Of a stretch of DNA of 64,000 bases, positions 5,002 to 59,748 are shown one piece after another. Numbering within the stretch: the first letter of the stretch is position 1; each line of letters begins with the position of its first letter. The stretch lies in assembly GCA_017940575.1 (NCBI GenBank), contig JAGAYJ010000015.1, positions 17,083-81,082 on the forward strand. The letters are read 5' to 3'. Position numbers and translations under genes: made by a program. The notes beneath the pieces are model-generated. The model saw nothing but the letters and a program-made list of their open reading frames with translations. It made no database searches and was not told where the DNA came from. This stretch comes from Bacilli bacterium. GTDB taxonomy: Bacteria > Bacillota_I > Bacilli_A > RF39 > UBA660.

Positions 5002-7155
5002 ATGAAAAAACCAGAACTTTTATCTCCAGCTGGTAATATGGAGTGTTTATATGCTGCTATAAATGCTGGAGCTGATGCAATATATTTAGGTGGAAAATTA
5101 TTTGGAGCACGCAGTTTTGCAGGTAATTTTACACGTGAAGAATTAATTAGTGCTATAAAATATGCTCATACATATGGAGTTAAAATATATGTAACAGTAA
5201 ATACAATGGTATATGAAGAAGAAGTTGAATCATTTTTAGAGTATGTAGATTTCTTGCACAAAAATAATGTAGATGCTTTAATTATTCAAGACTTAGGAAT
5301 GATGGATCTACTTAGAAAAACATATCCTAATTTAGAACTTCATGCATCAACTCAAATGAATGTTCATAATGTAGAAGGTGTTAAATTTTTGAGTGATTTA
5401 GGCCTTAAAAGAGTAGTACTTGCACGTGAAACTAATATAGAAAAAATAAGAGAAATTAAAAGCAAAGTAGATTGTGAGTTAGAAGTATTCTCTCAAGGAG
5501 CACTTTGTCTAAGCTATTCTGGTGAATGTTTAATGAGTAGTCTAATAGGTGGTAGAAGTGGTAACCGTGGAACATGTAGTCAATGTTGTCGTATGCCATA
5601 TGATTTAATAAGTGATGGTAAAATAATCAATAAAAATAAATATCTACTTAGTACAAAAGACTTAAATACATTAGAAAACCTTCCTCTTTTAATAGAAGCA
5701 GGTGTTGACTCATTAAAAATAGAAGGTAGGATGAAAAGAAAAGAATATGTCTATTTAATGACTAAGATATATAGAACAGCTATTGATAACTATTTTGAAG
5801 GTAAGAAATTATTTACTAAAGAAGATATAATAGAAATGAAAAAAATGTTCAATAGAGAGTTCACAAAAGGATTCTTATTTAATGAATCTAATAGTAACTT
5901 TATAAATTCTTTTAGACCGAACCATATTGGTATAAAAATAGGTGAAGTAATTGGTAAAAATAGAATTAAACTAACAAGTGACATAAAACAAGGTGACGGT
6001 ATTAGAATAATAGGAACTAAGGATATAGGTTCAATTCTAAATAAAATATATAAAAATAAAAAATTAGTTAATGCTGCTTTTATTGGAGATATAATTGAAA
6101 TTGAACTTAAAGATAACGTAGCTGATGGTATAGTTGTACTTACAAGTTCAAAAGAACAATTAGATAGAATAGATAAAGAACTTTCTATATCTAAAAAAAT
6201 AAAAGTTAATATGAGTGTTAAAAATGAAGGAAGTTCTATAAAAGTATCTTTAACAGACTTTAAAAACACAGTATTTCTTGAAAAAAATATTGTTGAAAAA
6301 GCTATAAACGCTGGAACTAGCCATGATAGAATTATTGAACAATTAACTAAATTTGGTGATACACCATTTGTAATAAATGAAGTTACATCAAGTCTAGAAG
6401 ATAATATATTTGTAAGTATTAAAGAGCTTAATAACTTAAGAAGAGAATTAACTAATATGTTAATAGATAAAAGATGTTATAAAATAGACTATGTAAAAAA
6501 TGACTATTCAATAGATTTACATGATTATGATAAAACAAAAGATTATTCAGTTTTATTAAATGATGCAAAAGATTATGATTTAATAAAAAAATTCAAACTA
6601 GACGCTATTTATTCTGAAGATACTATAGAAGATTCTAGATTTGTAAGAAGAATACCTAGAGTTAACTTTGACTTATCAGATTACAGTGATAAATTACTTG
6701 TTGGTGATATTGGAGCACTAGCTAAATATAAAGACTTTGTAACAGATTTTAACTTTAATATATCTAATTCATATGCAGTTGCTTTTATGCATTCTATAGG
6801 TGCATCTAAAGTAACTTTATCATATGAACTAAAACCATTTCAAATAAAAAAAATAATTGATAAATATCATGAAAGATATAATAAACATCCAAATGTAGAA
6901 GTAATAATTTCATCTACTCCAGAGGTAATGATATCTAAATATGATATGTTAAAAGACTATAATATTAAAGAAGGTTATTTAAAAGATTCATTTAATAATA
7001 AGTTTAAAGTTGTATCAAAAGATAATTTAATGACTATTTACAATTTTAAAAAGATTATAGTTCTAGATAATCTACACCAAATTGGTGTTAACTCACTTAG
7101 AATTCATTTTGAAGATAAAGATGATTTAGAATTATTAGATAGTTTAGTAAAATAA
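5002..7155 (+). CDS. Peptidase U32 family protein (collagenase-like / tRNA hydroxylation accessory family), long form
   Basis: N-terminal KPELLSPAGN..AAINAGADAIYLGG and E..SQGALC..SGEC U32 signature blocks; 717 aa with C-terminal extension. Confidence 0.85.
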   Translation: MKKPELLSPAGNMECLYAAINAGADAIYLGGKLFGARSFAGNFTREELISAIKYAHTYGVKIYVTVNTMVYEEEVESFLEYVDFLHKNNVDALIIQDLGMMDLLRKTYPNLELHASTQMNVHNVEGVKFLSDLGLKRVVLARETNIEKIREIKSKVDCELEVFSQGALCLSYSGECLMSSLIGGRSGNRGTCSQCCRMPYDLISDGKIINKNKYLLSTKDLNTLENLPLLIEAGVDSLKIEGRMKRKEYVYLMTKIYRTAIDNYFEGKKLFTKEDIIEMKKMFNREFTKGFLFNESNSNFINSFRPNHIGIKIGEVIGKNRIKLTSDIKQGDGIRIIGTKDIGSILNKIYKNKKLVNAAFIGDIIEIELKDNVADGIVVLTSSKEQLDRIDKELSISKKIKVNMSVKNEGSSIKVSLTDFKNTVFLEKNIVEKAINAGTSHDRIIEQLTKFGDTPFVINEVTSSLEDNIFVSIKELNNLRRELTNMLIDKRCYKIDYVKNDYSIDLHDYDKTKDYSVLLNDAKDYDLIKKFKLDAIYSEDTIEDSRFVRRIPRVNFDLSDYSDKLLVGDIGALAKYKDFVTDFNFNISNSYAVAFMHSIGASKVTLSYELKPFQIKKIIDKYHERYNKHPNVEVIISSTPEVMISKYDMLKDYNIKEGYLKDSFNNKFKVVSKDNLMTIYNFKKIIVLDNLHQIGVNSLRIHFEDKDDLELLDSLVK

Positions 7156-7288: not shown

Positions 7289-7366
7289 ATGACTAAAAGA
7301 GAAAGCATGCTTTACCTTATAATCATTCTCCTTATACTAATTATATTTATACTACTGTATAAGTAA
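7289..7366 (+). CDS. Small hydrophobic membrane peptide (25 aa) MTKRESMLYLIIILLILIIFILLYK
   Basis: Not in ORF track; ATG 7289 preceded by GAGGTGG RBS at ideal spacing; followed by strong terminator 7381-7416; paralog of the minus-strand peptide at 36190-36273. Confidence 0.4.
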   Translation: MTKRESMLYLIIILLILIIFILLYK

Positions 7367-7380
7367 TTAATATAAAAAAT

Positions 7381-7416
7381 AATCCTAGTGCCACAGGGGG
7401 TCACTAGGATTTTTTG
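7381..7416 (+). terminator. Intrinsic terminator (aatcctagtg ... cactaggatt + TTTTTT)
   Basis: 10-bp perfect stem with an 11-nt loop followed by a T-run. Confidence 0.8.
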
Positions 7417-7617
7417 CAAAAAAACTTTTTGCAAGGAATACCTAAACCTATTAGGTGCCCTCAACATAATTATATGATATTTATAACTTACAGTCAATTA
7501 TATTTAAAGATTTATATAATAAAATAAACATATTAAAGTGTATAATATAGTCAAATTTTACATGATTGACTATATTTTTTCAAATAAAAAAGATATAATA
7601 AATATGAGGTGTTTTAT

Positions 7618-9729
7618 ATGAGAGAACATATATTAGATATTTTAAAGAGTTCTGATAAAGCGTTATCTGCAACAGAAATCGCAGATAATTTAGGATATGC
7701 TGATGTAGAACATTTAACAGAAGTATTAAAAGTATTAAATGAGTTAGAAGAAAACTATACAGTTTATCACACAAATAAAGATAAATATATGTTATTTTCA
7801 AACAGTCATTTAAAAATAGGTACACTTTTATCTACAAAGAAAGATTTTGCTTTTGTAGATATTGATGGTGATGAAGATGTTTTTGTTCATTCATCAAATC
7901 TTAATGGAGCAATTCATAAAGATAAAGTAATAGTTGAAATAACATCAAAAGTAGGTTTAAAATTAGAAGGTAGAATTGTTAAAGTTGTAGATAGAAACTT
8001 AGATAATATAGTAGGTGAAATATATTATCATAATGGAAGAACTTGCTTAAAACTTGATGAAGAAAAATTTAAAATAAATGTTGTAATTGATCAAGATAAA
8101 ACACTAGGTGCTCTAGAAGGACACAAAGTTTTAGCTAAGGTAACTAATAGACTTGATAAAAATACTTATCGAGGTGAAGTATTAAAAATACTTGGACATA
8201 AAAATGATCCTGGTGTTGATATATTGTCAATTGTATATAAATATGGTATTAATGATGTATTTAATGAAAGAGTTCAAGAAGAATTAAAAAGTATTCCAGA
8301 TCATGTCTTAGATGAAGATAGAAAAGGAAGAAGAGATTTAACAGATCACATGATATTTACAATAGATGGAGACGATACAAAAGATATTGATGACGCTATT
8401 GAAGTTGAAAAACTATCTGATGGTTATAAACTAGGTGTTCATATAGCAGATGTTTCTTACTATGTAAAAGAAGGAACTGCTTTATATGATGAAGCAATGG
8501 ACAGAGGTACAAGTGTTTATTTAGCTGATAGAGTAATACCAATGCTTCCTCATAAACTTTCAAATGGTATATGTTCACTTAACCCTGGTGTAGATAGACT
8601 AGCTATATCATGTGTTATGACAATTGATAATAACGGAAATATTAAAGATTATGATATATTCCCTAGTGTTATTAGATCACGTATTCAAATGACTTATAAA
8701 AAAGTTAATAAAATATTAGAAGAAAACATAGTGCCAGAAGGATATGAAGAATATGCTGATACTCTTCGTACTATGAAAGAACTTGCTGATATTTTAAGAC
8801 AAAATAAAATAAATAGAGGTTATATTGACTTTGAAGTTGAAGAACCTAAAATTATAGTTGATGATGAAGGCAAAGCAATTGATATAAAGGTGAGAGAAAG
8901 AGGAGTTGGAGAAAAACTAATCGAAGATTTCATGATTGCTGCTAATGAAGCAGTTGCAACTTATATCTACTTCCTAGAGTATCCATTTATTTACCGTGTA
9001 CATGGAACTCCAAGTGAAGAGAAGATTCAATCATTTATGACATATATTGAATCTTGTGGATATAAACTTACTGGTAACTTTAAAGAAATATATCCTACTA
9101 CAATGCAAGAGATATTAAGACAGCTTAAAGATAAACCAGAATTTCCAATATTCTCAAGTCTACTACTTAGAAGTATGAGAAAAGCTGTATATGATACAAC
9201 TAATATTGGACACTTTGGACTTGCTAGTAAGTGTTACACTCACTTTACATCTCCAATTAGACGTTTCCCTGACACTACTGTACATAGACTTTTACACAAA
9301 TATATATTTGATGCAAATAACTCATATCAAACATTACAAATTGAAGAAATGAAACTTCCAGCAATCGCAGAACATTCTTCACAAAAGGAAAGAGATTCTG
9401 TTGATTGTGAAAGAGAAGTAGATGATATGAAAATGGCTGAATACATGATGAATCATGTGGGAGAAGAATTTACAGGAATGATTTCAAGTATTACTAAATT
9501 TGGTATGTTTATAATGCTTCCTAACTTAGTAGAAGGTTTAATTAGAGTTGAAGATTTAAAAGGTGACTATTATATGTTTGATGAATCAACAATTAAACTT
9601 ACTGGTAAAAAGGATAAAAAAGGTTATAGACTTGGTGATAAAGTAGAAGTTGTATGTACTGCTGCATCAAAAGAAGCAAAAACTATCGATTTTGTTTTAA
9701 AGAAAGACTATAATGGAAATCAAAAATAA
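7618..9729 (+). CDS. rnr: Ribonuclease R
   Basis: N-terminal HTH/cold-shock region, RNB catalytic core (DxxDIDDAI..., FTSPIRRFPDTTVHR), C-terminal S1 domain; GAGG RBS before ATG 7618. Confidence 0.9.
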   Translation: MREHILDILKSSDKALSATEIADNLGYADVEHLTEVLKVLNELEENYTVYHTNKDKYMLFSNSHLKIGTLLSTKKDFAFVDIDGDEDVFVHSSNLNGAIHKDKVIVEITSKVGLKLEGRIVKVVDRNLDNIVGEIYYHNGRTCLKLDEEKFKINVVIDQDKTLGALEGHKVLAKVTNRLDKNTYRGEVLKILGHKNDPGVDILSIVYKYGINDVFNERVQEELKSIPDHVLDEDRKGRRDLTDHMIFTIDGDDTKDIDDAIEVEKLSDGYKLGVHIADVSYYVKEGTALYDEAMDRGTSVYLADRVIPMLPHKLSNGICSLNPGVDRLAISCVMTIDNNGNIKDYDIFPSVIRSRIQMTYKKVNKILEENIVPEGYEEYADTLRTMKELADILRQNKINRGYIDFEVEEPKIIVDDEGKAIDIKVRERGVGEKLIEDFMIAANEAVATYIYFLEYPFIYRVHGTPSEEKIQSFMTYIESCGYKLTGNFKEIYPTTMQEILRQLKDKPEFPIFSSLLLRSMRKAVYDTTNIGHFGLASKCYTHFTSPIRRFPDTTVHRLLHKYIFDANNSYQTLQIEEMKLPAIAEHSSQKERDSVDCEREVDDMKMAEYMMNHVGEEFTGMISSITKFGMFIMLPNLVEGLIRVEDLKGDYYMFDESTIKLTGKKDKKGYRLGDKVEVVCTAASKEAKTIDFVLKKDYNGNQK

Positions 9730-51060: not shown

Positions 51061-51321
51061 ATTATCACCTAATTAAATTATAAAGTATAGATTATAGATA
51101 AGTCAAACTAAATAATATTCAAATTATAAAAGTGTGTAAAAATGTGTCAAGATAATAAAAAAAGACTTAATATGCCTTTTATTTTAAAAATCTTATGTTA
51201 TACTTTAATTGTAAGTTAGAAGTAACTTATTCTGGGAACAGACATAAAAGAATGAACTTTTTAATAAGTTCAAAAAAGGGGAAAATGATATATTTTATAT
51301 CATTTTTTTTATAAAAAAATA

Positions 51322-51413
51322 GAAACTGTTCCCCCTGAGAACAGTTTCATAAAAGAATAAAAAGGGGTTGGCTAGTGTGATACTAGCACCAATTCGACAT
51401 TTCCGAACTGGTG
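51322..51413. other. Cluster of three strong hairpins (27-nt perfect stem-loop gaaactgttc-ccccctga-gaacagtttc; gctagtgtgatactagc; caccaattcgacatttccgaactggtg); candidate small structured RNA or REP-like element
   Basis: Seen directly. On the minus strand the first hairpin is followed by a T-run (terminator) and a TTGACT..TAGTAT promoter-like pair lies at about 51430-51465. Confidence 0.4.
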
Positions 51414-51699
51414 CTTTATATACTACATCTAAAATTAAATAAAGTCAAGTTTTTAACATTAAAAAAAATATTTTTTTAAGCACTATATTGACTTACGAAC
51501 AGTTGTTTGATATTATTGTTTTGAAAGCGGTGATATTATCGAACTTATAGATTTAAAAGGAATAGGACCAAAAGGCGTTAAAATACTTAATAAACTTGGT
51601 ATTTATAGTATAGAAGATTTAATTTGTTTTTATCCCTTTAGATATAATTTAATAAGAAGAAGTGATGTAAATACACTTGAAACTAATGATAAAATTGTA

Positions 51700-53508
51700 A
51701 TGGATGGAATAATTGAGACAACACCAACGTTATTTAGACTTAAAAGAAAACTTGATTTAATGCGTTTTAAACTTAATACAGGCTCTAATTTAATGAATGT
51801 AACAATATATAACAGAGGATTTTTAAAAAATAAATTAAGTGTTGGAAGTAGTGTTACTTTAATTGGAAAATATGACAAACAACATAATGGAATAATAGCA
51901 AGTGAAATTAGATTTGGCAGTATTTCTAAAGAGAAAATTGAACCGGTTTATCACTTAACATATGGTATTACTAATAATCAAATTAGTCTTTATGTAAAAG
52001 AGGCACTTGAAAACTGTTGTGAGGTTAAAGATTATATTCCTGATATTATAAAAGAAAAGTATTTGTTTAATGATAAGATTAATGATATTAGAAATATTCA
52101 TCTACCAAATAATATAAATAATTTAAAAAAATCTATTAATAGATTAAAATATGAAGAATTATTTACATTTATGCTTAAAATGAATTATCTTAAAACAAAT
52201 AAAAAAAACAGAATTGGTTTAAAAAGAAAAGTTGATTTTAAACTTGTTGATAAATTCATTAAAACTCTTTCTTTTGAACTTACACCAGATCAATTAAAAG
52301 CTGTTAATGATATTTATAATGATTTAATGAGTGAAAAAAGAATGAATAGACTTATCCAAGGTGATGTTGGTTGTGGAAAAACTATAGTTGCAATAATATC
52401 TATGTATATAAATTATTTAAGTGGATACCAAAGTGCATTAATGGCTCCAACAGAAATACTTGCAGAACAACATTATCAAAATATTAAAACCTTATTTAAG
52501 GATTATGATATAAGTATTGCTTTATTAACAGGTAAATTAAAAGTAAAAGAAAAAAAAGAATTATATAAGAAGATAGAGTCTGGCGAGGTTGATTTTATAA
52601 TTGGCACGCATGCTTTAATATCTGATAGTGTTAAATATAATAATTTAGGATTAGTTATTACAGATGAACAACATAGATTTGGTGTAAATCAAAGAGCTAA
52701 TTTAAAAAATAAAGGAATAACACCTGATATTTTATATATGAGTGCAACTCCGATACCAAGAACTTATGCACTTACTTTATATGGAGATATGGATATAACA
52801 AATATTAAGACATCTCCAAGTGGAAAAAAAGAAATTATCACTACTTTAAAAAAAGAATCCGAGATTAAAGATGTACTTGAATCTATGTATAAAGAATTAA
52901 AAGAAGGCCATCAAGTCTATGCAATTGCACCTTTAATTGAAGAAAGTGATAAATCAGATTTAAAGAATGTTTATGAGTTAGAAGAAAATATGAATAAAGC
53001 TTTTGGAAAACTTTATAATATTGGAATACTTCATGGTAAAATGACGGATATCGAAAAAGAAGAGGTAATGAATAAGTTTAAAAATAATGAGATACAAATA
53101 CTCATTAGTACAACTGTTGTAGAAGTTGGAGTAGATGTTAAAAATGCAACAATGATGGTTATATTTGATGCGTTTAGATTTGGTTTATCTGCACTTCATC
53201 AATTAAGAGGAAGAGTTGGTAGAAATAATCTTCAGTCATATTGTATTTTAATTAGTAATAGAGAAACTAAAAGGCTTGATATTTTAACTCATACCAATGA
53301 TGGTTTTAAAATAAGTGAAGAAGATTTTACCTTAAGAGGAAGTGGAGACTTATTTGGACTTAGACAAAGTGGAGATATGAAGTTTAGACTTGCTGATATA
53401 AAAAAAGATTTTAATATTTTACTTAAAGCAAAAGAAGATAGTTTAATTTTTTTAGGTAAAAAGGAAAATATTGATGATTATATTAAAGAAGATGAAAATA
53501 TAGATTAA
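51700..53508 (+). CDS. recG: ATP-dependent DNA helicase RecG (the true N-terminus extends upstream to about 51511-51540 but has no canonical start codon)
   Basis: The in-frame upstream translation IELIDLKGIGPKGVKILNKLGIYSIEDLICFYPFRYN is the conserved RecG N-terminus. Helicase motifs GDVGCGKT, DEQHRFGV, QLRGRVGR. The upstream in-frame stop is at 51508-51510 and there is no ATG/GTG/TTG in frame before 51700. Confidence 0.85.
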   Translation: MDGIIETTPTLFRLKRKLDLMRFKLNTGSNLMNVTIYNRGFLKNKLSVGSSVTLIGKYDKQHNGIIASEIRFGSISKEKIEPVYHLTYGITNNQISLYVKEALENCCEVKDYIPDIIKEKYLFNDKINDIRNIHLPNNINNLKKSINRLKYEELFTFMLKMNYLKTNKKNRIGLKRKVDFKLVDKFIKTLSFELTPDQLKAVNDIYNDLMSEKRMNRLIQGDVGCGKTIVAIISMYINYLSGYQSALMAPTEILAEQHYQNIKTLFKDYDISIALLTGKLKVKEKKELYKKIESGEVDFIIGTHALISDSVKYNNLGLVITDEQHRFGVNQRANLKNKGITPDILYMSATPIPRTYALTLYGDMDITNIKTSPSGKKEIITTLKKESEIKDVLESMYKELKEGHQVYAIAPLIEESDKSDLKNVYELEENMNKAFGKLYNIGILHGKMTDIEKEEVMNKFKNNEIQILISTTVVEVGVDVKNATMMVIFDAFRFGLSALHQLRGRVGRNNLQSYCILISNRETKRLDILTHTNDGFKISEEDFTLRGSGDLFGLRQSGDMKFRLADIKKDFNILLKAKEDSLIFLGKKENIDDYIKEDENID

Positions 53509-53512
53509 TAAT

Positions 53513-53547
53513 TTGACAAGGTTAAATAAAATAAATATAATTATAAT
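53513..53547 (+). promoter_or_regulatory. Consensus SigA promoter (TTGACA, 17-nt spacer, TATAAT; second tandem TATAAT)
   Basis: TTGACA 53513-53518, TATAAT 53536-53541 and 53542-53547. Confidence 0.65.
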
Positions 53548-53548
53548 A

Positions 53549-53648
53549 GCGTGATACTAACTCACGCATACACTCTTACGATATTTAGTTGAGAGTGATT
53601 ATAAAACCCCCTGAATGCCCAGTCATTGTGACTGGGTTATTTTTTTTT
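53549..53648 (+). ncRNA. Structured 5' leader or small RNA of about 100 nt (two hairpins plus intrinsic terminator cccagtcattgtgactggg + T-run), candidate riboswitch or attenuator of the downstream gene
   Basis: Lies between a perfect promoter and the downstream RBS/ATG (53680); hairpins GCGTGA..TCACGC, CACTCT..AGAGTG, CCCAGTC..GACTGGG followed by U-run. Confidence 0.45.
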
Positions 53649-53679
53649 GTTATAATATTCTTAGAAGTGAGGAATGCTT

Positions 53680-54165
53680 ATGAAAAATTTTTACATTATT
53701 TGGTCTTTTATATTTATTTTAATAGCTTTTATATTGACTATAGATATGCTTAATAAACCAGGCACTAAAATAAAAAAAATAGGTGAAATAGCAGGTGTTA
53801 ATTTATATGAATGTAAAATTATTTATAATAATGATACACATGGTGGATTTCATGGAGATGGGGAATATTTTGCTAAATTAGATTGTTCTTCATTAAAGAA
53901 TTATTCAGCTATTTTAAAGTGGAATAAATTACCTTTAAATGAAGATATAAAAAAAGAGATTTTAGTTGAATCTTGTTCAATAGAAAAATGTACAAATGTG
54001 CTTGAAAGATATAATATTCCAAATATTAAAAATGGATATTATTATTTTATTGATAGAAATAGTACATATGATAAAGAATTAAATATAAAAATATATTATA
54101 ATTATAGTTTATTTTTATTTGATGAGGATAATAAAAGTATATATTATTATGAACTAGATACTTAA
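53680..54165 (+). CDS. Hypothetical secreted/membrane-anchored protein
   Basis: GTGAGGA RBS 8 nt upstream of ATG 53680; N-terminal hydrophobic segment. Confidence 0.45.
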   Translation: MKNFYIIWSFIFILIAFILTIDMLNKPGTKIKKIGEIAGVNLYECKIIYNNDTHGGFHGDGEYFAKLDCSSLKNYSAILKWNKLPLNEDIKKEILVESCSIEKCTNVLERYNIPNIKNGYYYFIDRNSTYDKELNIKIYYNYSLFLFDEDNKSIYYYELDT

Positions 54166-54248
54166 GAATATTAATAATGTTTGCTTTTTTTGTTGATTAC
54201 ATAATTTTCTTGTGTTATAATTAATATGAATAATTGGGAGGCTAGTGT

Positions 54249-54506
54249 ATGGAAAAAGAAACAATTTTAGTAACAGATCAAAATGGAGTAGAGAAAGAAG
54301 CAGAAGTTATTCTATGCTTTGAAAAAGATAATAAGAATTTTATAATATATACATTTAATGAAACTGATGAAAAGGGAATGACTATCTTATATTCTTCTAT
54401 GGTTAAAGTTGAAGACGGCGTAAATGTATTTGAAAAAATCACTCCTGAAGATTGGACAATGGTAAAAAGTGTTATGAATAGCATTGTTAAAGAAGGGAAG
54501 GAATAA
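54249..54506 (+). CDS. DUF1292 / UPF0473-family small protein
   Basis: ILVTDQNGVEKEAEVILCFEKDNKNFIIY...EDWTMVKSVMNSI matches the DUF1292 pattern (I-xL-xDenGne-e-yeVlf-f...d-ew--ve-vln-f). Confidence 0.55.
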   Translation: MEKETILVTDQNGVEKEAEVILCFEKDNKNFIIYTFNETDEKGMTILYSSMVKVEDGVNVFEKITPEDWTMVKSVMNSIVKEGKE

Positions 54507-54507
54507 T

Positions 54508-55623
54508 ATGTTAGATAATATAAATTTAAAAAAAACAAGTGAGTTATTAGGCACATTTAAAAATAAAATTAATGGCTATAATAAAAGTAAAGCTAAGCTT
54601 TCAATTTTAGATAAGATTAGAAAATTTTATTTTGGACTTGTTTTAAATATTAAAAATAATCAACTTGATAAATTAGATGAAGAACAAAAAAATATTAAAG
54701 AAAATTTAGAAAATTATAAAGAAGAATTTGATAGACAAATGACAATTGCAAATAATGAAGTCAAATTAAAAGAAACTGAAAAAAATATTAGTAAAGAAGA
54801 ATTGAAAAAAACTAATAATGAGAAAAAAATTAAAAGTATAGAAAAAAGTGCAAATGAAATACAAGCCAAAATTGATGAAATTGATACTAAAGAAGTAGAA
54901 GATAGACTTGCTGATATTAAACCAATCGAAAACACAAGTGATGTTGAAATTGATCAAGTATCTAAAAATTTAGAAGCAGAAGCTGATAAAGTGGCTCAAG
55001 AAGAAAAATCTAATGTTCAAGTAGAACAAGAATTGAAAAATGTTGAAGAAGAATTAAAAAATACAGTTAATGCTTCAACAGAACCTGTTAAAATTGAAGA
55101 GCCAAGTGTAAATGTAGAACAACCTAAAGAAGAAAATGAAATTGAAAAGATTAAAGCTGAATTAACTAATGGTTTTAATGAAGAGATAAAAGCATTATCT
55201 ATTAGATTTATGCAAACGGTTGAATCTAAGCTTAATGAACAAGCTAGAAGATATGAAACCAAATTACAAAATCAAAAAGCTGATTATGAAAATGAATTTG
55301 ATGTGTTAACTAATAAAGCTGAAAAAATTGATAGTGAGAATAAATCAAAAATTGATGAACTTACAAGTCAAAACAAAAAATTAGCAACTGATAAAGATAA
55401 TGCATATAGTACAATAGCTTCTAAAGAAACTGAAATTAAATTTTTAAATGAACAAGTTGCATCATTAAATTCAACAGTTGAAGCAAATAAAATTGAAATG
55501 GATGCTAAAGATAAAGAAATAGAAAGACTTAAAGTATTTGAACAAAGATGGATGCTTATGTCTCAAGCAATGGCACCAGTTGCTCAAGCTGAAACTTTAG
55601 CTGAATCTACAAAAACAAGATAA
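54508..55623 (+). CDS. Coiled-coil protein (Glu/Lys-rich), unknown function
   Basis: GGAAGGA RBS; long heptad-like charged repeats. Confidence 0.4.
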   Translation: MLDNINLKKTSELLGTFKNKINGYNKSKAKLSILDKIRKFYFGLVLNIKNNQLDKLDEEQKNIKENLENYKEEFDRQMTIANNEVKLKETEKNISKEELKKTNNEKKIKSIEKSANEIQAKIDEIDTKEVEDRLADIKPIENTSDVEIDQVSKNLEAEADKVAQEEKSNVQVEQELKNVEEELKNTVNASTEPVKIEEPSVNVEQPKEENEIEKIKAELTNGFNEEIKALSIRFMQTVESKLNEQARRYETKLQNQKADYENEFDVLTNKAEKIDSENKSKIDELTSQNKKLATDKDNAYSTIASKETEIKFLNEQVASLNSTVEANKIEMDAKDKEIERLKVFEQRWMLMSQAMAPVAQAETLAESTKTR

Positions 55624-58992: not shown

Positions 58993-59373
58993 ATGTTTAA
59001 AGCTACGATTGGAAAATTTTATGATGTAGATAATAATATTACATCGCTTAGATATTATATGTCTGAAGATACTAAAGAAAGATTAGCTATAAAAATAAAT
59101 GACGATTGGATGTTTACTATAGATAATGATAATCTTGAAATATATCCTATAGTCAAAAGAGATAACAGAGGTTATATAAAAGATAATATAAAGTTAAATC
59201 AGGAATATGTAATATCATATAAACTTGTAAAAAATATAGATTATAAAATTTATTTAAAAAATATAATAGTTGCTAAATTATTTGCGCCTGTATTAAATTA
59301 TTATGCAAAATATATGCATAAAGATTTATGTGATTCAGATAAAATAGAAAAAACTAAAAAATTAGTTAAATAA
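58993..59373 (+). CDS. Hypothetical small protein (weak paralog of next gene)
   Basis: N-terminal KATIGKFYDVDNN vs next gene RAKVGKFKNYDAH. Confidence 0.4.
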   Translation: MFKATIGKFYDVDNNITSLRYYMSEDTKERLAIKINDDWMFTIDNDNLEIYPIVKRDNRGYIKDNIKLNQEYVISYKLVKNIDYKIYLKNIIVAKLFAPVLNYYAKYMHKDLCDSDKIEKTKKLVK

Positions 59374-59400
59374 CACTAGTTAATTATAGGGGGGATAATA

Positions 59401-59748
59401 ATGATAAATATAGAAAGCGGAATGTGTAGAGCTAAAGTTGGAAAATTTAAAAACTATGATGCACATTATAATTTTAATAATTTATATTTAAAAAAAGATA
59501 ATAAAGATATATTAGATATAATTGGTATTGTAAATGATGGTTCTGTAATTGATATAAATACAGGAGTTGAATATCCAATTTTAAAACACGATGAAAATAA
59601 TAATATATCTATAAATCAAGATATAAATCTAGATACTTTATATGCACTTGATTTAAATTATATTAATGAAAAAAGAACTACATCAAAAGATTATATAAAA
59701 GCTATTGATATAAAAGTTAAAAGACTATTAAAACAAAAAAATAATTAA
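59401..59748 (+). CDS. Hypothetical small protein
   Basis: GGGGGATAA RBS. Confidence 0.4.
   Translation: MINIESGMCRAKVGKFKNYDAHYNFNNLYLKKDNKDILDIIGIVNDGSVIDINTGVEYPILKHDENNNISINQDINLDTLYALDLNYINEKRTTSKDYIKAIDIKVKRLLKQKNN

Follow-up and report, generated by a model that had tools for sequence, protein, structure and literature searches.

A putative C-rich-seed small RNA gene beside recG in uncultured gut Bacilli, which probably doubles as an attachment site for integrative elements

The C-rich regions of the Bacillota small RNAs (sRNAs) RoxS/RsaE, FsrA, and CsfG pair with G-rich Shine-Dalgarno (SD) regions, and C-rich sRNAs can in turn be titrated by G-rich sponge RNAs such as RosA and RsaI, the latter of which has a C-rich region in addition to its G-rich one (PMC8216469). 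Here, we describe a predicted sRNA (sRNA-1) that shares with RoxS/RsaE (RF01820), FsrA, and CsfG an independent sigma-A promoter, a length of ~100 nt, hairpins together with an accessible C-run, and an intrinsic terminator, but has no sequence or structure homology to any of them. Its single C5 tract lies in the 3' tail, whereas known C-rich sRNAs have two or three CCCC motifs, located partly in loops, and its conserved flank reads (ACC)AAAA-CCCCC-UGAAG, as opposed to CCCCUUUGUUU in the known C-rich sRNAs. A second set of parallels is with the tRNA and tmRNA genes that serve as attB sites of tyrosine-integrase prophages, ICEs, and IMEs: there, as at sRNA-1, elements insert into a conserved small RNA gene at its 3' end and supply a replacement for that end, the core is found as a direct repeat flanking the element, the integrase lies beside the att site, and tandem arrays are possible. 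Unlike tRNA and tmRNA sites, the target in this case is a gene of the regulatory sRNA type, and just its terminator hairpin is replaced. Our analysis makes it probable that positions 53513-53648 constitute a stand-alone gene for a trans-acting sRNA of ~100 nt with a C-rich seed, which doubles as an attB site.

The window (i.e., the whole stretch of 64,000 nucleotides of a Bacilli bacterium contig that was analyzed) contains all of the features collected in Table 1. The original prediction had described a perfect promoter, and the site in question is indeed the best promoter-like site in 52000-55500, matching at 12 of 12 positions. From this promoter, a transcript running from ~53548 to 53650 is predicted to form three hairpins (P1, P2, and the terminator), with a minimum free energy (MFE) of -32.4 kcal/mol (z = -5.9), and none of 200 dinucleotide shuffles fold as well; the + strand orientation fits the U-G pairs and the U-tail. 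That the last of the three hairpins is a canonical terminator had likewise been proposed, and on this point the fold agrees with a terminator scan of the region (2 sites vs 0.4 expected). Between P2 and the terminator, the C-rich stretch AAAACCCCCUGAAU (53603-53616), which had been singled out as unusual and single stranded, is unpaired in the MFE structure and proved to be the key feature of sRNA-1. The SD sequence and ATG of the gene at 53680 are also where they had been reported, ~30 nt past the U-run. In sRNA-1, a promoter and an intrinsic terminator of its own bound a short non-coding unit, as they would in a stand-alone sRNA gene. The possibility of a small peptide encoded by the ORF at 53589-53753, which overlaps sRNA-1, was rejected because this ORF crosses the non-conserved terminator.

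Table 1. Coordinates of the features of the sRNA-1 locus in the window
Feature	Position	Strand	Details
Predicted sRNA-2 with promoter, divergent from recG	51312..51448	-	RNA 51413 to 51312; promoter 51448-51420; terminator 51348-51322
recG, usual upstream neighbor of sRNA-1	51700..53508	+	In-frame homology to ~51535
Predicted sigma-A promoter of sRNA-1	53513..53541	+	TTGACA-17-TATAAT, 12/12
Predicted sRNA-1, ~100 nt, from fixed start to end of U-run	53547..53648	+	Covariance model R1
Hairpin P1	53549..53567	+	GCGUGA / UCACGC, loop UACUAAC
Hairpin P2	53571..53597	+	CACUCUUA / UGAGAGUG; UUACG conserved, 5' side of apex
Single-stranded tail AUUAUAAAACCCCCUGAAU	53598..53616	+	Presumed seed inside
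Equivalent of putative attB core (AACCCCCTGAAG/A in relatives)	53605..53617	+	Unoccupied in the window
Invariant CCCCCUGA, presumed seed	53607-53614	+	Within sRNA-1 tail
Intrinsic terminator	53617..53648	+	9-bp stem 53617-53637, 5 GC pairs, loop UUG, then UA+U9
Candidate extended -10 promoter of the 53680 gene	53628..53656	+	GTGACT-17-TG-n-TATAAT, 10/12; overlaps terminator
Membrane-anchored hypothetical gene (163/161 aa)	53674/53680-54165	+	On insertion 53649..54185

Relatives of this locus were collected with the C-terminal half of RecG as query, one genome being kept per species, which yielded 80 loci from metagenome-assembled genomes (MAGs) of uncultured gut Bacilli/'Tenericutes' (RecG 69-82% identical); one of these, Candidatus Fimihabitans, is classified as Mycoplasmatota incertae sedis. 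Iterated nhmmer searches revealed sRNA-1 in 63 of the 80 recG loci and covariance model R1 in 66 of them, always ~90 nt 3' of the recG stop codon, and in ~14 of the 80 related species no sRNA-1 was found beside recG. The original prediction had named a lack of conservation in related genomes as a refutation; the element is conserved in these 66 species loci. In the window itself, R1 matches a single copy (53547-53616, 62.5 bits). In addition, a metagenome scan returned 120 contigs, 103 of which contain the whole of sRNA-1 with far more divergent hairpins; its query was the 17-mer tail, so this set is uninformative on tail conservation. Full-length homologues have a mean length of 97 nt (range 82-110), and their carriers are MAGs from the guts of humans, ruminants, rabbits, and chickens, with annotations as Bacilli, 'Tenericutes', or Mycoplasmatota.

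The promoter pattern TTGAC[A/T]-17-TAnnnT is kept in 61 of the 62 recG-linked homologues, and in 60 of the 62 the -10 box ends exactly 5 nt before the start of the RNA model. In the recG-anchored set (alignment A3, 62 sequences), which was fitted to the covariance model and therefore leans toward the modelled structure, 91.2% of the pair cells are standard and 12 of the 14 pairs display compensatory double changes. The covariation score of this set is 0.506 vs 0.272 for shuffled alignments (none of 500 shuffles reaches 0.506), and sliding the 3' partners by 1-3 columns lowers pairing to 23-69%. The metagenome set (alignment A4, 83 distinct copies), fitted to the model with the same leaning, has 94.7% of its cells paired, compensatory changes in all 14 pairs, and a covariation score of 0.744 vs 0.262, and its slid controls pair at 32-52%. 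Both hairpins contribute to this signal: compensatory changes affect 4 of the 5 modelled P1 pairs in the recG set (98.7% of cells paired) and all 5 in the metagenome set, with variants such as GCGUGA/UCACGC, GGUAUGG/CAUACC, and GCACGA/UCGUGC, among others, and they affect 8 of the 9 and all 9 P2 pairs, respectively. The variety of pair types, up to six per pair, would be difficult to account for without a real structure. This covarying structure is independent of the flanking genes, another trait of a stand-alone sRNA gene.

Within the tail, CCCCCUG is invariant and is embedded in a nearly invariant (AACC)AAAACCCCCUGAAG tract; in the recG-anchored alignment, which is unbiased in this respect, no variation occurs at C62-C65 or G67, and AAAC..U.AA reaches at least 90% conservation. 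For CCCCCUG, the unpaired probability is 0.90 in the window and averages 0.94 (minimum 0.82) across 59 homologues, whichever terminator follows. The element hence possesses the accessible C-rich motif that characterizes RsaE/RoxS, albeit in one such tract only. The terminator hairpin displays no conserved sequence between species. Taken together, these comparisons indicate selection on the promoter, on both hairpins, and on the tail.

Searches of Rfam 15 with the whole window at the gathering threshold recovered only tmRNA and tRNAs, and relaxing the threshold to E ≤ 10 over 53300-53900 gave noise only (Hrs1 on the wrong strand, 22.6 bits; NsiR1, 16 bits, driven by the terminator), which bears out the earlier statement that the element cannot be assigned to a known riboswitch class. 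Likewise, no match for sRNA-1 was obtained on 14 homologous loci, and RF01820 (RsaE/RoxS), whose gathering score is 79 bits, did not match sRNA-1 even at E ≤ 10. A full-text literature search with the core string retrieved unrelated papers only. An identity as SRP RNA, 6S RNA, or another housekeeping RNA was rejected given the lack of an Rfam match and an architecture of two short hairpins. On these comparisons, the predicted sRNA-1 is a new sRNA family, outside RF01820 and any other Rfam family, though it embodies no new principle.

The combination of a promoter, two hairpins, an accessible invariant C-run, and a terminator is the anatomy of a C-rich sRNA, from which we infer that sRNA-1 is expressed and acts in trans by base pairing, with the C-tract as its seed. 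A strong constitutive sigma-A promoter would start transcription at a fixed point just 5' of P1; P1 and P2 would play a structural or stabilizing role and be followed by the always-unpaired tail with its invariant CCCCCUG(A); and the intrinsic terminator would end sRNA-1 and recG transcripts alike. The C-rich tail would most likely base-pair with G-rich sequences, whether mRNA sites of the SD type or a G-rich loop in another sRNA.

A candidate for such a loop is present in a second predicted sRNA (sRNA-2), which is transcribed divergently from recG and whose promoter reads TTGACT-17-TAGTAT. It occurs in 61 of the 80 recG loci, including species without sRNA-1, and combines a covarying 5' hairpin and an invariant GCUAGUAUCACACUAGCCAACCCCUUUUUAUUCUUUU segment with a terminator whose stem covaries and whose loop reads YUCAGGGG(G) in 55 of 62 sequences (i.e., the 61 loci and the window). 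The loop sequence UCAGGGGG is the exact complement of CCCCCUGA in sRNA-1, and the complementarity reaches 10-11 nt in several species. As in the RoxS-RosA and RsaE-RsaI pairs, a G-rich region of one RNA is thus complementary to the C-rich seed of the other, and sRNA-2 resembles RsaI in having both C-rich and G-rich regions. Unlike in those pairs, the match between CCCCCUGA(AG) and (CU)UCAGGGGG is a predicted complementarity of 8-11 nt only and is not universal; the G-loop is absent in 7 species that keep sRNA-1 and present in 3 without it. Duplex energies of the full-length RNAs, a calculation in which intramolecular structure is ignored, are no better than those of shuffles (mean z +0.2). With its ACCCCUUUUUAUU motif, sRNA-2 is more RsaE-like than sRNA-1 is, and it too has no Rfam match, RF01820 reaching only 25.2 bits vs a gathering score of 79. 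It is conceivable, although we would not call it likely, that recG is flanked by a conserved sRNA pair in which the sRNA-1 tail kisses the sRNA-2 loop, resulting in a sponge or in sRNA-controlled termination. Were this so, elements that insert at the sRNA-1 tail with new terminators would rewire the stability of one partner. Past sRNA-2, on the - strand at ~51190-51300, the window as well as its nearest relatives (L001-L004 and L026) contain a further, related module composed of a hairpin, UUUUCCCCUUUUUUGA, another hairpin, and then AUUCUUUUAUG, which looks like a tandem duplicate of the C-rich sRNA.

The sequence GGGGG is rare in the window (six overlapping start positions in five places, one of which is the sRNA itself), and the ORF at 59401-59748, a candidate mRNA partner between a NifU_N/SufU-like gene and sufB, is the only window gene with a GGGGG-containing SD sequence (UAGGGGGG). 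With -15.5 kcal/mol, the predicted duplex of sRNA-1 with this SD is the best of all translation-initiation regions in the window, for which the background has a mean of -5.0 and a 1% quantile of -11.9 kcal/mol. The UAGGGGG(G) SD, with five to six Gs, is retained in 4 homologues of 76-81% identity. This protein family comprises 7 clusters among 5.8 billion proteins and is restricted to the genus; accordingly, it is not the ancestral target and cannot explain clade-wide conservation. The 58993-59748 interval between the NifU_N/SufU-like gene and sufB holds two paralogous small ORFs (126 and 115 aa), and it is the 115-aa one that has this SD. We also found UAUCAGGGGGC inside recG codons, but only at three loci, of which two come from species genomes and one from a metagenome contig, and not in the window.

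A search for recurrent G-rich sites at start codons across 1.5 Mb of related loci, amounting to a few kb per genome, produced nothing consistent. Such a lack of a clade-wide mRNA target would also be expected if sRNA-1 bound or titrated a protein, with (ACC)AAAACCCCCUGAAG recognized by a single-strand C-rich RNA-binding protein (e.g., one with a KH domain), and the invariance of an always-unpaired tract over 7-12 nt suits this reading as well. We nevertheless judge it unlikely: the missing target carries little weight when each genome is represented by only a few kb of fetched sequence, no protein emerged as a candidate, and the architecture is that of the known C-rich pairing sRNAs (PMC8216469).

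The proximity of recG raises another alternative, namely that the element is nothing other than the 3' untranslated region (UTR) and terminator of recG, its hairpins stabilizing the recG mRNA without giving rise to an independent RNA. The recG stop codon (53508) lies 5 nt before the -35 box of sRNA-1, the gene has no terminator of its own before 53617, so that the sRNA-1 terminator serves recG too, and the element usually adjoins recG. However, a consensus promoter is conserved at a fixed distance in 60 of 62 species, and an invariant unpaired tail is unexpected in a mere stabilizer. The metagenome copies point in the same direction: RecG is a neighbor in 56 of 103, and recG lies directly upstream in 36, one gene away in 12, and downstream on the opposite strand in 8, and is unseen in 24. 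A linkage that is frequent and yet not obligatory argues against a mere recG 3' UTR, an explanation that we therefore hold to be very improbable. As regards recG itself, the RecG homology runs in frame 5' of the first ATG (51700) to ~51535 (..ATT ATC GAA CTT ATA GAT..), and the 51535-51700 extension offers no ATG, GTG, or TTG start; RecG could start at a non-canonical ATT/ATC codon, or its N-terminus could be truncated.

In addition to its predicted role as a pairing sRNA, comparison indicates that sRNA-1 provides, at its 3' end, the integration site of tyrosine-integrase elements and prophages. At L035, the direct repeat AACCCCCTGAAGA, an attL/attR pair, is found at 5165, where the RNA body ends, and again at 8289, where the body is missing. 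Between these copies lies a 3.1-kb island that encodes a tyrosine integrase (Phage_integrase + Arm-DNA-bind_4; 5446-6543), a HipA_C kinase-like protein, and a HIRAN protein, and a second element follows this island in tandem; L220 contains another repeat of the core. These are core direct repeats flanking an element that has an integrase near one end, as is typical of an occupied attB site. An integrase ORF lies 100-250 nt past the core in 14 loci; next to it there usually come a Mob_Pre relaxase and then an AAA_25 protein, and the combination of an integrase with a Mob_Pre (MobV) relaxase matches the make-up of integrative mobilizable elements (PMC5357655, PMC5704250). In the same place, L119 (IMG/VR) carries a temperate-phage module consisting of an integrase, a CI-like repressor, Erf, an exonuclease, SSB, and NinB. 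A scan of viral_contigs with the 14-mer AAAACCCCCTGAAG gave almost exclusively chance matches, only L119 and L161 being real. Elements located directly 3' of the core bring their own terminator hairpin, and 14 MAG contigs break within 300 nt past the core, as expected at a variable, repeated junction.

We take the invariance of the tail to be the reason why integrative mobilizable elements and temperate phages with tyrosine integrases have AACCCCCTGAAG as their attB core; on insertion, the terminator is exchanged for the element's own copy. The RNA of many species is consequently chimeric, its body coming from the host and its 3' end from an element. No integrase lies downstream in the window, L001, or L003, which correspond to the empty site and still keep AAAACCCCCUGAA; this suggests that the tail is conserved for the sake of the host and that the elements exploit it. 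With respect to cargo, the elements past the core in L035, L038, L028, L068, L042, and L080 encode either an integrase with HipA_C and HIRAN proteins or an integrase with Mob_Pre and AAA_25 proteins, and that in L037 encodes a Macro-domain protein. Short direct repeats beside the att site, such as TAGGTACC..TAGGTACC, resemble arm-type integrase binding sites.

The original prediction had interpreted the element as a candidate riboswitch or attenuator, that is, a ligand- or protein-controlled leader that governs read-through into the 53680 gene. What stands of this proposal is the promoter-driven, structured, and terminated RNA; what falls is its assignment as the leader of that gene. The linear order of promoter, structured RNA, and terminator is indeed shared with riboswitch and attenuator leaders, and an SD and ATG follow ~30 nt on, but the region 53649-54185 is a lineage-specific insertion of 537 bp that carries the 163-aa gene together with its promoter and is not part of the RNA unit. 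In L001 and L003, which are the closest relatives, at most 11 nt separate the homologue of 53501-53648 from the ensuing homologue of 54186-54600. The extended -10 promoter that overlaps the terminator could plausibly drive the 53680 gene alone. A comparison of the regions upstream of the orthologues of this gene had been suggested; tblastn detected the 163-aa protein, which is N-terminally hydrophobic and has no Pfam match, in none of ~320 fetched related loci, whereas the RNA itself recurs with covariation.

What lies downstream differs between species and may be DUF1292, some unrelated gene, a prophage, or a mobile element with an integrase. DUF1292 was rejected as a conserved downstream target, given that it has its own promoter, that elements intervene in many species, and that it is detectable by tblastn only in L001 and L003. 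Moreover, terminators are swapped horizontally: ten species pairs are at least 94% identical over the 70 nt past the core, with RNA bodies that are less than 0.8 similar. The terminator is therefore an exchangeable module without conserved sequence, which leaves no room for a conserved antiterminator or an expression platform, and no conserved alternative (antiterminator) pairing was found in sRNA-1. Neither the window nor the 14 diverse homologous loci yielded an Rfam riboswitch match, and linkage to a downstream gene, a competing antiterminator, and a match to a curated cis-regulatory family were all absent. Unlike riboswitch and attenuator leaders, sRNA-1 has no conserved regulated gene, expression platform, or aptamer-like core; its conserved bases sit in the unpaired tail, and the remainder consists of two simple covarying hairpins. 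The comparison thus indicates that the sRNA-1 gene is independent of its downstream neighbor, and a cis-acting attenuator or riboswitch that senses a ligand or protein seems scarcely credible. Equally implausible is the idea that the RNA is part of the mobile elements (an att site together with an element-encoded RNA) and not of the host. Elements do carry the 3' part from the core onward and spread it horizontally, but the promoter and hairpins P1 and P2 covary and have diverged along with the host lineage, integrase-free sites (window, L001, and L003) contain the full gene, and the attR copy of L035 lacks the RNA body.

Several other RNA elements were observed in the course of this analysis. 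At 7290-7500 of the window, a hairpin with the loop CACAGGGGG comes after a hydrophobic ORF of 25 aa (MTKRESMLYLIIILLILIIFILLYK), and a convergent strong promoter (TTGACT-17-TATAAT, 7497-7469, - strand) is predicted to produce an antisense RNA with CCCCCUGUG in that hairpin, a layout that resembles a type I toxin-antitoxin system. Unrelated to sRNA-1, metagenome contigs of related organisms contain a NiCo riboswitch (L241 7966-8033, 49 bits) and an L31-Firmicutes leader (L230 2435-2466, 37 bits).

From these uncultured, reduced-genome gut Bacilli, a poorly known lineage, sRNA-1 now adds a well-supported structured sRNA family with no counterpart in Rfam 15. If it acts as predicted, the theme of sRNAs with C-rich seeds would extend beyond cultured Bacillales, with the concept itself unchanged. 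Covariance model R1 may serve to annotate the family. The site at its 3' end, where MAG contigs often break owing to integration, may provide a precise attB landmark with which to delimit integrative mobilizable elements and prophages in fragmented MAGs. Finally, the locus offers a testable hypothesis of pairing between sRNAs or between an sRNA and an SD sequence in these bacteria.
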